A DNA stretch of 31,056 bases from assembly GCF_003334335.1 (NCBI RefSeq), contig NZ_QOWQ01000047.1; one strand, written 5' to 3'. This DNA comes from Escherichia coli (GTDB taxonomy: Bacteria > Pseudomonadota > Gammaproteobacteria > Enterobacterales > Enterobacteriaceae). Below, piece after piece: positions 1,290 to 7,214 of this stretch (positions are counted from its first letter, which is position 1; each line of letters starts with the position of its first letter). Below the pieces are notes generated by a model. That model did no database searches. It worked only from the letters and a program-made list of their open reading frames with translations, and was not told the origin of the DNA. The position numbers and the translations under genes are program-made.

Positions 1290-2021
1290 TCACCTGCCAT
1301 CCAGTAGACGCCCCGGCCCACGACTGCAACCATAATTACGTTGCCCGGAACCGTTATGCAACTTCGTTTCATTTTTCACGAGATAACGGGCTCTCTCCAG
1401 GGCTTTCTGCACCGCTTCCTTGTCACCACGCGTGACCCAGAGCACAGCGGATCCACCAGACTTTTTGTCAGAAGCCTTCCGGGTATCAGAACACCCACTT
1501 GGTAAAGGCGTGTCATCGGAAGAAGGGGGAGCAGCAGGTGATGTCGGTTTACGGGAAGGAGTCCACCTGGAAAAATGGACCAGCCCATCACCCAGCCAGG
1601 GCTCAATACGCAGGGCGCTGCACCATGCCTCCTGGATCAGCGTCGCCAGCGAAGAAGAAACGGTGAAATCCCCGAGCGAGCACCAGGTATCTTTGTTGAG
1701 CAGTAATATCACGTGATAATGTTTCCTGCCATACATCTTGCCGAACTCCCGGCACCAGAAATAACCCAGGCTGGTTGCATGCACACGCTGATTGGCACAT
1801 CTTTTTTTCCGCTGGTAAGCCTGAATTTTGGCTTTCAGGGATTCGAAAAAACGAGAAATCACCGCTGAATCCGGATCGGGCTCCATGATGGTGACAGGCA
1901 TATACTCAGGGAAACGTAAATCCACCCGGATTAACGAGACGGCACGGTGTTGCACCAGGGCACTGTTGAGAATACTTTCAAAACGGGATAACCAGTAATC
2001 ATTGTGTATTGGTTGATTCAT
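1290..2021 (-). CDS. YfjJ/YagK-family protein (Inovirus Gp2-like), typical of CP4-type cryptic prophage islands
   Basis: 243-aa ORF; family assigned from memory of K-12 CP4-57 and CP4-6 paralogs, not from an alignment. Several overlapping antisense ORFs were ignored. Confidence 0.55.
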   Translation of the reverse strand: MNQPIHNDYWLSRFESILNSALVQHRAVSLIRVDLRFPEYMPVTIMEPDPDSAVISRFFESLKAKIQAYQRKKRCANQRVHATSLGYFWCREFGKMYGRKHYHVILLLNKDTWCSLGDFTVSSSLATLIQEAWCSALRIEPWLGDGLVHFSRWTPSRKPTSPAAPPSSDDTPLPSGCSDTRKASDKKSGGSAVLWVTRGDKEAVQKALERARYLVKNETKLHNGSGQRNYGCSRGPGRLLDGR

Positions 2022-2690
2022 GATGAGAGATCTCCGTTGATTTGGATTGACTTCACATCATTAATCGCCGCGGTAAAACTTTACGGCATCCCACCAATGA
2101 GCAACGCCAATAGCTCCTGATTAAAACGGAATGAATCGTCCCGTAACGAAAAGATAATCCTGCACACGACAGCAAAACGTAAAACAACAGCATGAATGAG
2201 CTAAATGTCTAAAGAAAAACTGCCTTTTCACATTATTTTTCAGCGAGTAATCATACCAGCATCCCTAACATACGAAATCGCATCGTGATCGATCGCTGAT
2301 TCGCCGAACAACTGATCGAATACACCGGAATCTGCACTAACATCCTGATGGGTAACGGAAGACTAAAAAACCAGTGTTCTATTGATTGCACGGAATGCCT
2401 GTGCGCTGGCCTGACCAGTAAGCACAATTCTACGAGTAGTAAGATATCTACTCCAAAACCATGCGCAGTAGCCACCATATGTTGCCAGGGTGAAAAATAA
2501 GCTCAGAGCTATAGGGGAGTAATTCCCGTTAATGTCATCGCCGTACCTCAATCAGCTCACAAACTGGCTGAAACGTTAAGCTGAGGCCTTTATTCTTCAG
2601 ATGTATTTTCCGGTTTACCTGTAAATTATCTTCTGATATTTATCACATTAGTAATTGTGCTGATTATCTACATACTTCAAGGTCTGAAAT

Positions 2691-3221
2691 ATGAAGCTAA
2701 CAGAAGAAAGTCTGAATCTAGTCATTGACATCCTGAATGATTTGATCTGTGAAGGAAAAATGCTGAACGATGTGGAGCGCAGATCTCTGCTCAATGCAGT
2801 TATGGCAATTACAGCGGTAAAAGAACGTTCTGTCGTATCTGTATCATCCCGAAAAGAGCAAAGTAAGAAGGAGAAGAAGGAAAGAGAGATCGATCCTCGT
2901 TTCCCAAATGCTGGTGTGGCATGGAATGAGGCAGACGAGAGTTTATTGCGAGATGTTCTGGAGGATGTACCGGACGATGAAATTGGTAAACACCTTTTCT
3001 GGCTGGCAGAGAAACTAGGGCGAACCCCGTACAGTGTAGCCTGTAAAGTCAGACAAATTAAGAAATTACCTGCAGAATGGAAGGATCAATTTCGTAAAAT
3101 CTCTGACAGGATCCGTAGTTCTGGAATGTCAGTCAGTGAATATCTACAACGCCAGGGACTGTTAAGCCCAGAGTCAGGGGAAGAAAACAATCCTGTCAGT
3201 CATAACAACAATGTAGCTTAA
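2691..3221 (+). CDS. Hypothetical protein (176 aa) with a Lys/Glu-rich central linker and a possible C-terminal HTH-like region; unknown family
   Basis: Clean ATG start at 2691, KEQSKKEKKERE low-complexity segment, stop at 3219-3221 followed by a hairpin; sits in the island cargo slot. No family recognised. Confidence 0.45.
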   Translation: MKLTEESLNLVIDILNDLICEGKMLNDVERRSLLNAVMAITAVKERSVVSVSSRKEQSKKEKKEREIDPRFPNAGVAWNEADESLLRDVLEDVPDDEIGKHLFWLAEKLGRTPYSVACKVRQIKKLPAEWKDQFRKISDRIRSSGMSVSEYLQRQGLLSPESGEENNPVSHNNNVA

Positions 3222-3234
3222 TCCTGAAGAAGAT

Positions 3235-3270
3235 GAACAGTTTATACTCTTTAAACTGTTCCCTTAATTT
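3235..3270 (+). terminator. Putative intrinsic terminator after the 176-aa ORF
   Basis: Perfect 10-bp inverted repeat GAACAGTTTA / TAAACTGTTC (3235-3244 and 3252-3261) with a 7-nt loop, followed by a T-rich tract. The stem is AT-rich, so strength is uncertain. Confidence 0.35.
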
Positions 3271-3761
3271 TAGAAAAACAGTTTGTGTAAGTGCATGCTC
3301 CAACATTCTGAAGGCGTTATTTCTTACAATACATCATAATCATTGGCAGATCCTCATCTGAATCAAAACACCACAACCAATCATCACACTTTTTCTGAAA
3401 AGAGCCTTATGATGAAGATAATCACCTTACGCTGAGAAAAAACACCAGGGCCAGTTAATCACCTTATCAATCTCGCCGTTACAAAATCATCCATAAGCCA
3501 TTTAACAGTGTTATCGCAAACTCACAGTAAATCGCATCAGGTTACCTCAATCGGATTTGAGTTAATTCACTGGGCTTTACGTAAAGATACTTTTCTCAAG
3601 CTAACGTCGAAACTCGAAATCTAAGGAAAGGTTAAACGTAACATCAGTAAAATCGAATAGCAGATTGATTGCTTAAACAGAAAGGTTTTACAGCAGCATT
3701 AAACTGATTTAGTTAACGTAAAGATTTACTAAACTGGATGTGTATAGCAATGCTTAACGAA

Positions 3762-3880
3762 AACACTTGTAGAAGTGTTTATGAAAATACGTGTATGTCT
3801 GGTAAAACACTTAGTAGAAAATACGTGTATAACACTTACTGAAATGCTTAGTAAAAATACTTAGTAAAATACGTGTATAT
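3762..3880. repeat. Cluster of direct repeats (three exact copies of AAAATACGTGTAT) plus a palindrome, inside a 1.16-kb AT-rich non-coding region
   Basis: Exact 13-mer at 3784-3796, 3818-3830 and 3866-3878 (spacing 34 and 48 bp); copies 2 and 3 share the extended unit CTTAGTA(G)AAAATACGTGTAT; palindrome AACACTT-gtag-AAGTGTT at 3762-3779. No ORF of 60 aa or more anywhere in 3222-4384. Confidence 0.6.
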
Positions 3881-4384
3881 AGTATCATACCGACATTCTC
3901 AACATCTTCAGACTTCCATACATACTGGGTGTTAATTTTTCACTTTTACAGCCAGCATGGAGTTTTCTGTCCTAAAAACAGAGCAGATTTACTCTGGAGT
4001 TATTTTCCTGTTCACGTATTCAGTACAGCAGAAATCCCGTGATAACGAGACAGTAAACCATCGTAATCAGCGTCTGTAACTCCATCGCTTTACCCCAGAA
4101 AAGTTAAGCCATATAATGTGAGGGATATAAGTCGTCGTATCCGGTAAGTACAGATAACCACAACATAAGCTCATTCAGTAAATTTTATCTCTGAACAAAC
4201 GACTATGGCATGCTCATTTATACTATTCATAAGAAAGTGTGATTATCTGTAAGCATTAACCATCAAATCATATAACCATACTAAACTGGCGGATCATCAG
4301 CACCATTAGCAGGTAACTTATTGAAATTTTATTATGTGTTTTTTGTTGATAATTAATATGCAATATGAATTTGATATTTTAGAA

Positions 4385-5608
4385 TCATGAACACCATTTA
4401 AAATTACCATCATTAATATCATATAAAAATATATTTTTACTAAAACATGAATTGTATATATTTATTAGCTCAGGAAAATTATCAGGGTTCACCTTCAAAT
4501 TAACCTGAATGTTATGCTTAATTTCACCCAGTAGTTCTTCATGTGTGGATTTTATTATCCCATTATTATAATCGATAAATGCACACATGTTTTTTATGAA
4601 TTCAAAACCTTTTCCTGTATACAGTTTAATGAATGCCACCAGAGCAAACATTTCAAGATGTAGCCATAATGCTACGTTAGTTTTTTGCAAAGTATAAAAA
4701 ATTGAATTCGCCACTTTTTTACTTATTGCTCTTTTATACTGTGATCGAGCAAGATTCAGTAGCGGAAGCTCTCGTTCAATAAATGAATGTGAAAAGACTG
4801 GATAAATTGATGTCGGAAACCTTTCAGGCCTTATGATATTTTCTATTTCCACCATAAATCTATCCATAGAAAGAAAGTCACTTTCTTTTTTTATTCTGGT
4901 ATAGAGACCGCCTTTATTCCTTTCTGAGGTTTGTTTTCGTGCTATCCCCCCTAACAATTTCTCTAATTGTTTATTTATCTTCGTATAATTAAATACAACC
5001 ATTCTTCTTATCATCCTCGGAAGGATAATAATATCAGTGCTTGAATCACTTGAACGGCAATTATTATTTATCCATGCAACTTCAAGTTGCAGTATCGGAA
5101 CATTAACTTTTCTGGGGTGAATATCACTCTGATATCGTTTTTTGTATGCGTTTTCATTAAGATATTCTCTGCTGTAGAGAAACTTATAGCAATATAATCT
5201 GATAATATCTTTTATGTAAAATTTAAATAGTTCACCTGTAACAGATATATGTTTTCTGCTCAGTAACTCCTGTGTATTAAGCCATTCCCGTGACCGAAGC
5301 ACACCCTTGTGAAAACTTTTTCTTACTTGCTTTGAGGCACGGCATTGATGTAATATTTTTGCGTCCTCAATAATTCTCTTTCCCGTTTTATTTTTTGCAG
5401 CATCTCTTACTCCATAAAATATCTCCCGGTCCAGACTTTTGTCATATTTACTGATTATACGACAAATATTCCTGACCCGACGATTCTCTTTATTTCGCTT
5501 CCATAGCTTATAATGATCATCGCATAACCTTAAGGCATTTGCCTCATCAAATTCTGAAACAGGATTACTGCATTTTTTATTCCGACAAATACCTTTGTTT
5601 TTAGCCAT
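4385..5608 (-). CDS. Orphan hypothetical protein (407 aa), strongly AT-rich, N-terminal Cys/His cluster (possible zinc-binding or HNH-like finger); candidate cargo or defence gene
   Basis: Long uninterrupted ORF with ATG at 5606-5608 and a GGAAG-like Shine-Dalgarno upstream. Composition is visibly far more AT-rich than flanking DNA. N-terminus reads C-x4-C-x15-C-DD-H. No family recognised. Confidence 0.6.
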   Translation of the reverse strand: MAKNKGICRNKKCSNPVSEFDEANALRLCDDHYKLWKRNKENRRVRNICRIISKYDKSLDREIFYGVRDAAKNKTGKRIIEDAKILHQCRASKQVRKSFHKGVLRSREWLNTQELLSRKHISVTGELFKFYIKDIIRLYCYKFLYSREYLNENAYKKRYQSDIHPRKVNVPILQLEVAWINNNCRSSDSSTDIIILPRMIRRMVVFNYTKINKQLEKLLGGIARKQTSERNKGGLYTRIKKESDFLSMDRFMVEIENIIRPERFPTSIYPVFSHSFIERELPLLNLARSQYKRAISKKVANSIFYTLQKTNVALWLHLEMFALVAFIKLYTGKGFEFIKNMCAFIDYNNGIIKSTHEELLGEIKHNIQVNLKVNPDNFPELINIYNSCFSKNIFLYDINDGNFKWCS

Positions 5609-5661
5609 ACTCTTCTTCCCGTCAATGGAAAAATTTTCACACCCATATTACCTGAATGATA

Positions 5662-5684
5662 AACCGGATTAGTGTGATCCGGTT
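5662..5684. promoter_or_regulatory. Perfect palindrome AACCGGAT-N7-ATCCGGTT in the divergent intergenic region between the 407-aa gene and the GTPase gene; candidate operator
   Basis: Arms at 5662-5669 and 5677-5684 are exact reverse complements. It lies in the 100-bp gap between two divergently oriented start codons (5608 and 5709). Function is inferred. Confidence 0.3.
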
Positions 5685-5708
5685 CAGTGAAATCAACAGG
5701 ATACCGGT

Positions 5709-7214
5709 ATGCCATTCAGCAATTCTTCCCTCTCCGCGCAAGTGAAATCATATCTGACGTTTCTTCCTGAAGAAATACGCCAGAAAATCCTTGAACATCT
5801 CCACGGTGTTATTCATTACGAGCCCGTGATTGGCATTATGGGTAAATCCGGCACCGGCAAGAGCAGCCTGTGTAATGCCATTTTTCAGTCCCGTATCTGC
5901 GCCACGCATCCCCTGAACGGCTGCACCCGCCAGGCTCATCGTCTTACCCTGCAGCTCGGTGAACGCAGAATGACGCTGGTCGATCTGCCCGGCATTGGTG
6001 AAACACCGCAGCATGATCAGGAATACCGAGCGCTTTATCGTCAGTTACTGCCGGAACTGGATCTGATTATCTGGATCCTGCGGAGTGATGAACGTGCGTA
6101 TGCTGCCGATATTGCCATGCATCAGTTTTTACTGAATGAGGGCGCAGATCCCTCGCGCTTTCTGTTTGTTCTCAGCCATGCCGATCGCATGTTTCCTGCT
6201 GAAGAATGGAATGCCACAGAAAAATGCCCGTCCCGTCACCAGGAACTCTCACTGGCGACAGTAACAGCCCGGGTGGCCACCCTGTTCCCTTCATCATTTC
6301 CGGTACTCCCCGTAGCCGCGCCTGCAGGCTGGAACCTTCCAGCGCTGGTGTCACTGATGATCCACGCGCTGCCACCACAGGCAACCAGCGCAGTTTATTC
6401 ACATATCCGGGGGGAAAACCACTCTGAACAGGCCCGGAAACACGCACAACTGACTTTTGGTGAAACCATCGGGAAAAGTTTTGACGACGCCGTTGCCCGT
6501 TTCAGTTTTCCGCCCTGGATGTTACAGCTTCTGCGCAAAACCCGGGACCGCATTATCCACCTGCTGTTCACTGTGGCATCCTTCTCCACCTCCGCCGGTA
6601 ACTGGGCTGTCAAAAACGGCTGGTGCCAGACCATGACGGAAGATGGTCAGGCGCTGGTAATGCTGAAAAATGGCACGATTGGTATTACCGGCCTGATGCA
6701 GGGATGCCCGAATGGCGTACAGACGCTCCTGGGCAGCCGTATCAGTATTAACGGTAACCTGATCCCCACATCACAAATGTGTAATCAGCAGACGGGATTC
6801 AGGGCTGTTGAGGTGGAAGTCGGACAGGCGCCGGAAATGGTCAAAAAAGCCGTTCACTCCATAGCAGAGCGTGATGTGTCCGTTTTACAGGCATTTGGTG
6901 TACGAATGGAATTCACCCGCGGTGATATGCTGAAGGTCTGTCCGAAATTTGTCACATCACTTGCCGGTTTTTCCCCGAAACAGACACCCGCCATTAATAA
7001 AGATTCCGTCCTGCAGGCTGCCCGGCAGGCATACGCCCGGGAATATGACGAGGAAACAACAGAAACCGCTGATTTTGGCTCTTACGAAGTAAAAGGCAAT
7101 AAGGTTGAGTTTGAAGTGTTCAATCCTGAAGACCGTGCGTACGACAAAGTGACCGTCACGGTTGGTGCTGACGGTAATGCCACCGGTGCCAGCGTTGAAT
7201 TTATCGGAAAATAG
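5709..7214 (+). CDS. YeeP/YfjP/YkfA-family P-loop GTPase with an extra ~210-aa C-terminal extension
   Basis: Walker A motif GKSGTGKSS near residue 45 and a DLPG motif; the N-terminal ~290 aa resemble K-12 CP4 GTPases (about 287 aa, from memory). The ORF runs on to 501 aa. Confidence 0.7.

Follow-up and report, generated by a model that had tools for sequence, protein, structure and literature searches.

Does a small gene that sits beside a cargo gene and a repeat array in a genomic island serve that cargo, or does it stand on its own? This question is raised by a 176-amino-acid (aa) open reading frame (ORF) on the plus strand, positions 2691..3221, of a 31,056-nucleotide stretch of Escherichia coli DNA (contig NZ_QOWQ01000047.1, assembly GCF_003334335.1), which we refer to as the window. 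Its product, WP_000778605.1, is annotated as a hypothetical protein. An earlier note, made from the sequence alone, had proposed it as a regulator or partner of the 407-aa cargo ORF at window positions 4385-5608 (minus strand), or as a binder of the repeat array that lies between the two. We find that the ORF is a genuine gene, that its product is predicted to carry a homeodomain/Myb-like helix-turn-helix (HTH), and that the gene forms a free-standing optional cassette, separate from the 407-aa cargo. On balance, we read the protein as a dimeric DNA-binding regulator borne by mobile elements.

The 176-aa ORF is a genuine gene

The ATG at position 2691 is the first start codon past an in-frame stop, in agreement with the clean start described earlier, and a Shine-Dalgarno-like AAGG, read from the sequence, lies 8 nt 5' of it (2679..2682, plus strand). 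The Klebsiella oxytoca homologue carries TAAGGA in the equivalent position before its start, and the aligned homologues begin with the same MK(L/I/V)TE as the 176-aa protein. No ORF of at least 50 aa overlaps the coding sequence on either strand, and no strong sigma-70 consensus was found upstream of the gene. Just 3' of the stop codon, where a hairpin had already been remarked upon, lies an intrinsic-terminator-like structure with a weak T-tract (3235..3271, plus strand). The hairpin proper (3235-3261) has a perfect 10-bp stem and a 7-nt loop and is followed by CCTTAATTTT; its RNA folding energy of -14.5 kcal/mol (z = -4.35) was not equalled by any of 200 shuffled sequences.

The DNA of the gene was matched in 677 of 5,426 complete E. 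coli genomes (~12%), with coverage of at least 80% in 667 and identity of at least 99% in 666, and the identical protein is annotated in all three gene-carrying E. coli loci that we fetched (L001, L010 and L012). Between diverged homologues, the ratio of nonsynonymous to synonymous substitution rates (dN/dS) was 0.16-0.35 where dS could be estimated; the ratio was usable for 7 of 15 pairs, dS being saturated for most. These values indicate that purifying selection acts on the coding sequence of the family. From the ORF, its annotation and this signature of selection, we conclude that the 176-aa ORF is a genuine gene and not a chance reading frame.

The protein is predicted to carry a homeodomain/Myb-like HTH

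We modelled the full-length protein with AlphaFold from an alignment of 22 sequences and, because this model showed an ordered C-terminal domain flanked by disorder, modelled residues 64-160 a second time on their own, from 30 sequences. The protein begins with a predicted N-terminal helical hairpin (residues 5-52, window 2703..2846; helices 5-20 and 27-52) that bears a conserved LIC(E/D) motif and that we infer to be a dimerisation module. The Lys/Glu-rich low-complexity segment pointed out in the earlier note was found as the linker KEQSKKEKKERE (residues 55-66, window 2853..2888). This linker is predicted to be disordered, with residues 49-62 modelled at a predicted local distance difference test (pLDDT) score below 50, and its EKKE(R/K) composition is kept among homologues. 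An arm recognised in the alignment, DPRFPNAG (residues 68-75, window 2892..2915), stands directly before helix 1 of the C-terminal domain. Its residues P69, F71, P72 and A74 are invariant in the closer homologues, and the motif served us as a search pattern. Beyond the folded domain, the C-terminal tail (residues 159-176) is modelled as disordered.

The model of residues 64-160 has a mean pLDDT of 88.7, a predicted template modelling score of 0.80, and five helices, which in full-length numbering span residues 80-90, 95-109, 113-124, 128-144 and 148-154. The first three form a three-helix bundle in which helices 2 and 3 make up an HTH, as in the Myb/SANT-homeodomain-like fold (residues 78-124, window 2922..3062); helix 3 (113-124) would be the recognition helix. 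The last two helices, residues 128-144 and 148-154 (window 3072..3152), pack against the HTH in the model and include the conserved W130. The W/E/L-rich segment that had been likened to an HTH is residues 74-123, the conserved core of the family, and the core folds at a pLDDT of about 90. Conserved residues are W78, P94, W104, L105, G110, R111, T112, P113, Y114, A117, K119 and W130. Helix 1 has a net charge of -5 and is very acidic together with its loop, helix 3 carries +5 with no acidic residue, helix 4 carries +2, and the linker and arm (residues 53-77) together carry +3.

In a structural comparison of the model, the eight best matches were all DNA-binding domains of the homeodomain, POU, cut or Myb type, at the modest scores that are usual with 50-residue three-helix bundles. 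Three alignments showed the same family architecture: the LIC(E/D) hairpin, the basic/acidic linker, the DPxFP arm and a W...WLAEKLGRTPY(S/A)(V/I)A.K core. The earlier suggestion of an HTH-like C-terminus is therefore borne out as a prediction, in that residues 78-124 are modelled with a DNA-binding-type fold. The HTH is well supported as a prediction at the level of the fold; membership of the protein in the Myb or GcrA sequence family is not established.

The gene is an optional cassette, separate from the 407-aa cargo

The 176-aa gene sits in a CP4-57-type integrative island. In annotated E. coli copies, a YfjI-family gene and then an inovirus-Gp2/YfjJ-like gene (window 1290-2021, minus strand) precede the 176-aa gene, and 1.16 kb of AT-rich non-coding DNA separates it from the 407-aa gene on the minus strand. 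The 176-aa gene and the divergent Gp2-like gene have the region 2022-2690 upstream of them in common. There follow a YfjP/YeeP-type GTPase gene and then DUF905, DUF932, antirestriction, RadC/JAB, DUF987 and CbeA/CbtA genes. Compared with the island copy in L010, the window is ~100% identical over positions ~1900-3600 and 45-78% identical over 3600-4400, a segment that is hypervariable between island variants. In the variant L011, where the Gp2-like gene and a 407-aa gene of 97% identity are present and the 176-aa gene is absent, window positions 2199-3351 are swapped for ~290 unrelated bases, and both flanks align. This comparison delimits a present/absent cassette (2199..3351) that comprises the 176-aa gene, its own upstream region and its terminator. 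We conclude that the gene makes up a free-standing cassette, optional to the island, with the Gp2/YfjJ-like gene on one side and a conserved non-coding region on the other. The fallback once offered for the gene, that it might be unrelated island backbone, came closer to this evidence than the proposed tie to the cargo; put more precisely, the backbone can carry the cassette or lack it, as the replacement in L011 demonstrates.

If the protein were dedicated to the 407-aa gene, the two genes might be expected to travel together. The 407-aa gene was present in 976 of the 5,426 complete E. coli genomes (968 at a coverage of at least 80%), where it falls into two sequence clades, one of 232 genomes at an identity of at least 99% and one of 715 at 95-99%. 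Both genes were found in one place in 543 genomes, which is ~81% of the copies of the 176-aa gene (543 of ~667). However, ~124 genomes have the 176-aa gene without the 407-aa gene and ~425 have the reverse, and in L012 another cargo, which encodes hypothetical proteins of 284 and 320 aa, comes after the gene for the identical 176-aa protein. Neither a relative of the 407-aa gene nor an exact array motif occurred in the Klebsiella chromosomal, plasmid or other loci that we read, so homologues do exist in loci that lack both. Co-occurrence is thus not conserved across genomes and taxa. Nor do the two genes share an operon: they converge across 1,163 nt, and a separate terminator follows the 176-aa gene. 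They also differ in composition, with a G+C content of ~41% for the 176-aa gene against 32-35% for the 407-aa gene (non-coding DNA, 31-34%; backbone, 52-55%). Neither protein had a PADLOC match. The 81% adjacency in E. coli is best explained as linkage within one island lineage, which is adequate to account for the association.

The repeat array fares no better as a dedicated target. It lies at 3753-3881 within the AT-rich non-coding stretch that follows the cassette (3353-4384). Of the 1,865 E. coli genomes that a 3-kb query matched, many gave partial matches that are due to the segment 3353-4023, which contains the array and occurs with or without either flanking gene; we conclude that the non-coding stretch is a feature of the island backbone. 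The island of CFT073 has neither the 176-aa nor the 407-aa gene and still contains related repeats with one exact AAATACGTGTAT. In L010 the array is degenerate, and the identical 176-aa protein adjoins array regions that are just 45-61% identical. Our results therefore do not support the proposals that the protein regulates or partners the 407-aa gene or binds the array: the 176-aa gene is not a dedicated partner of either. The cargo gene and the array are best analysed without the 176-aa gene, and a tempting link is thereby removed.

The family is spread over Enterobacteriaceae, mostly on conjugative plasmids

Homologues 35-63% identical to the 176-aa protein occur in Klebsiella, Salmonella, Enterobacter, Cronobacter and other Enterobacteriaceae. 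A search with the single sequence against 1.84 billion representatives returned 58 clusters and a profile search ~157, with E values from 1e-108 to 1e-26. Among the 120 of these 157 clusters that were listed, all source names belonged to Enterobacteriaceae, the one exception being a partial record under the name Pseudomonas aeruginosa; a precomputed Pfam domain was present in none of the 120. Strict peptide patterns matched three loci among 100,044 species representatives. In PLSDB the family was present on 2,956 of 72,556 plasmids (~4%), of which 2,651 are from Klebsiella and 1,997 are conjugative; the plasmid copies are mostly on Klebsiella IncF plasmids.

On chromosomes of the K. oxytoca group, a 163-aa homologue stands alone ~435 nt downstream of tRNA-Arg(TCT), and, depending on the strain, the interval between the tRNA gene and the homologue has taken up prophages or a CP4-57-like island. 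In K. oxytoca this site (L003 7489-7565 and 8001-8492; also L002, L004 and L005) is a hot spot of integration, and the homologue invariably lies beyond the inserted element. Among phage records, INPHARED gave no match to the family, and IMG/VR gave one, 62% identical, at the extreme end of a 49.9-kb predicted viral contig. We rejected a phage origin, reading this match as flanking DNA beside a prophage, as in the K. oxytoca loci L002 and L004.

Plasmid homologues follow an 89-aa/191-aa gene pair

We next consider the plasmid loci. On the IncFIB/IncFII plasmid pNY9_1, the homologue comes third in a cluster of genes on one strand: an 89-aa and then a 191-aa gene precede it, and a 122-aa gene, an Hha-domain gene and two small genes follow. 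The cluster is flanked by an ars operon and by a DUF1778/GNAT gene pair, which in equivalent loci falls into Pfam families of TacA1 and acetyltransferase type. In another plasmid variant the first three genes are retained, and an Mrr-like gene comes next. No leading-region (ssb/psiB-type) genes were found near the homologue in the plasmids examined.

A 191-aa-family gene was directly upstream, on the same strand, in all plasmid and other-element loci examined (L006-L009, L014, L015, L016 and L019), even where the family member is only ~35% identical. The contexts in which it recurs upstream of family members are unrelated: an integrase/NACHT element (56% identity, E 2e-65), a locus with a KAP-NTPase gene, and Superficieibacter. 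The 89-aa/191-aa pair is located at 8138-8970 in L014, 6351-6950 in L016, 1032-2254 in L019 and 4744-5591 in L020, and has no Pfam or NCBIfam model. The 191-aa protein has weak winged-helix-like matches and is sometimes extended to ~320 aa; we rejected the idea that these longer versions are fusions with the 176-aa family. Nor did we rely on the name 'ydeA' for the partner, as it is inconsistent among plasmid groups. The 191-aa family itself comprises more than 1,100 clusters and is on at least 5,000 PLSDB plasmids, mostly conjugative, from E. coli, Klebsiella and Salmonella. No trace of the 191-aa gene was found in the window, the E. coli islands or the chromosomal copies of the K. oxytoca group, which indicates that the 176-aa gene is here separated from its usual 89-aa/191-aa partners.

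A family without a Pfam, NCBIfam or PADLOC model that is present on clinically relevant, mainly conjugative Klebsiella IncF plasmids merits a family description, and the predicted fold together with the recurrent operon context provides a starting point for experiments. While a homeodomain-like fold is less usual in bacteria, a small HTH protein on a mobile element is common in itself, and we regard the 176-aa gene as an ordinary accessory gene.

Proposed role of the 176-aa protein

We lean towards a role for the protein as a mobile-element-borne, dimeric DNA-binding regulator. In such a regulator, the N-terminal helical hairpins of two subunits would pair into a four-helix bundle, and the flexible K/E-rich linker and DPRFPNAG arm would tether two homeodomain/Myb-like HTH domains. 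The basic helix 3 would insert into the major groove, in the manner of GcrA (PMC5887438). The most likely function of the protein would then be to control, in a sequence-specific way, the transcription of mobile-element genes, its own gene included. Autoregulation and control of neighbouring element genes would be the default expectation. An operator search found none: the upstream regions from E. coli and the K. oxytoca group show no DNA similarity outside the ORF and share 8-mers at chance level only.

SANT-type three-helix domains can also bind proteins. The Myb/SANT-like domain could be a protein-binding adaptor in place of a DNA binder. It would then contact another protein, for example RNA polymerase, an H-NS/Hha-like nucleoid protein or a host defence factor, and modulate silencing or serve the anti-defence or establishment of mobile elements. 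The very acidic helix 1 and loop would suit such contacts, as would the Hha-domain gene two genes from the homologue on pNY9_1, the H-NS-family and ProQ/FinO-family proteins encoded ~7-9 kb upstream of the 176-aa gene in L001, and the restriction of the family to mobile elements, mostly conjugative plasmids. However, the Hha neighbourhood is not conserved, an Mrr-like gene taking that place in other plasmid variants; leading-region genes are not nearby in the plasmids examined; PADLOC gives no match; and the basic helix 3 and helix 4 form a classical DNA-contact surface. We consider the adaptor role unlikely.

About as unlikely, in our judgement, is that the protein works only as the third member of an 89-aa/191-aa/family operon, such that the partner-less island copy is an inert, decaying hitch-hiker. 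The invariable presence of the 191-aa-family gene upstream in the plasmid and other-element loci examined, its absence from the window and a frameshift in the Klebsiella grimontii copy are consistent with this idea. Yet the 666 E. coli genomes noted above carry an intact copy without partners, at an identity of at least 99%, the K. oxytoca and K. michiganensis copies are intact without either partner, and the island copy retains its own Shine-Dalgarno sequence and terminator. Moreover, because one IncI-gamma/K1 plasmid that we examined has a different gene, for an AAA ATPase, downstream of the 191-aa gene, the pairing is not obligatory from the side of the abundant 191-aa family.

A further proposal, which we regard as improbable, is that the protein represents an undescribed homeodomain/Myb-like family confined to mobile elements of Enterobacteriaceae, that it works with the 89-aa/191-aa pair on plasmids, and that a stand-alone chromosomal copy affects, in trans, elements that are incoming or resident. 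If true, examples of such action might be plasmid-island cross-talk or control of the Gp2/YfjJ-type replication module or the adjoining non-coding region. Finally, a dedicated regulator of the adjacent cargo, to which the 81% adjacency, the predicted DNA-binding fold and a recurrent 9-mer (described below) might point, is very improbable given the hundreds of genomes with one gene only, the copy with a different cargo, the array without either gene in CFT073, its divergence beside an identical protein, the Klebsiella loci and the convergent arrangement, terminator and G+C described above.

Features of the neighbouring DNA

Several further features of the window adjoin the cassette. The AbpAB defence genes adjoin yfjJ in E. 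coli K-12 (PMC10732053), and this part of the island is therefore a cargo slot. The 407-aa gene, for whose product neither Pfam nor PADLOC gave a match and PHROGs gave no significant one, fills the slot beside the YfjJ-like gene that holds AbpAB in K-12. The Gp2/Rep-like gene has weak matches to PHROG replication initiators and, since it adjoins the non-coding stretch 3353-4384, we speculate that this stretch might be an origin or regulatory region. An Rfam scan of 2000-6000 gave no match.

The 9-mer TGATTATCT occurs in four exact copies within 3.4 kb of AT-rich DNA (2661-2669, 3416-3424, 4240-4248 and 6064-6072). The first is 22-30 nt 5' of the start codon of the 176-aa gene, and two copies are inside longer inverted repeats (4149-4162/4238-4251 and 3416-3425/4239-4248). 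Because the 9-mer was chosen post hoc, the DNA is AT-rich and the shuffle control drew on the whole window, we did not count it as evidence of an operator. The cassette also holds, at 2581-2600 (plus strand) and ~90 nt 5' of the 176-aa start codon, another terminator-like hairpin, CTGAGGCCTTTATTCTTCAG, with a T-rich run after it.

Further downstream, the 501-aa ORF at 5709-7214 (plus strand) is a deletion chimera relative to L010. About 1,058 nt are missing (L010 9199-10256), which takes the end of the GTPase gene, the entire gene for a 226-aa HTH regulator and the start of the next gene, and the ends are fused in frame. At the junction the two alignments overlap by 28 nt (window 6553-6580).

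Comparison with known systems

No Pfam, NCBIfam or PADLOC model matched the 176-aa protein or its diverged relatives, and a profile search of Protein Data Bank (PDB) sequences gave no match. Library matches were at noise level: NikA-like at E 0.01-0.03, phrog_323 of PHROGs at E 0.003, and HNH_repeat at E 7e-3 for one member. A Foldseek search against AFDB50 gave one uncharacterised Comamonas protein at E 0.02, and otherwise all hits at E <0.1 were enterobacterial or metagenome members of the family itself. Searching the literature by accession, we found nothing on the WP_000778605.1 family; 'DNA-binding protein' is a legacy name of the WP_000778605 / WP_004152104 family, which is otherwise unnamed.

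Among the closest known systems are the eukaryotic Myb/SANT and homeodomain-like DNA-binding domains (Rap1, c-Myb R1-R2, Reb1, SNAPc4 and engrailed). The pattern W-x-E-x-D-E-x-L-L ... W-L-A-E-K-L-G-R-T-P-x-x-V-A-x-K resembles the Myb/SANT and GcrA signatures, with no profile confirming homology, and neither Myb_DNA-binding nor Homeodomain of Pfam matched the 176-aa protein or 30 family members at E <= 10. The protein differs from Myb/SANT proteins in having a single domain and not tandem repeats, and an additional loop, VPDDEIG, between helices 1 and 2. The core tryptophans of Myb are ~19 residues apart, one per helix. By contrast, W78, W104 and W130, which are invariant or nearly so, are spaced 26 + 26, and the third is in helix 4, not helix 3.

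The DNA-binding domain of GcrA from Caulobacter crescentus (PDB 5yiu; Pfam GcrA) is likewise among the closest systems, although Pfam GcrA matched neither the 176-aa protein nor family members. GcrA has a C-terminal CCCH zinc-finger domain that interacts with sigma-70 (PMC5887438). This zinc finger is absent from the 176-aa protein, whose sole cysteines are C20 and C118 and whose residues 159-176 are disordered in the model; instead, it has the predicted N-terminal helical hairpin and two extra C-terminal helices. GcrA works as a monomer (PMC9976885), whereas a dimer is the probable form of the 176-aa protein. Furthermore, GcrA is alphaproteobacterial and chromosomal, while the 176-aa family is on enterobacterial mobile elements.

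The likeness to HNH_repeat (PF18780) is marginal and confined to the helix 2-turn motif, and the architecture is unrelated: only the one family member already mentioned matches PF18780, and the window protein does not. Two long tandem-repeat proteins (P0110 and P0120) are weak matches of the family, with five stretches each (E 9e-7 and 1.5e-4), via L..LAE.LGR.P; we take them, from their sequence, to be HNH_repeat proteins, an assignment that is not confirmed. Lastly, HTH regulators of the AlpA/Xis, Cro/Xre and KorA types are likewise small, located on mobile elements, presumed to bind DNA and often equipped with a promoter and a terminator of their own. The 176-aa protein showed no similarity to any of these types in sequence or profile, and in place of their winged-helix or Cro-like folds it is predicted to combine a homeodomain-like tri-helical fold with an N-terminal hairpin.
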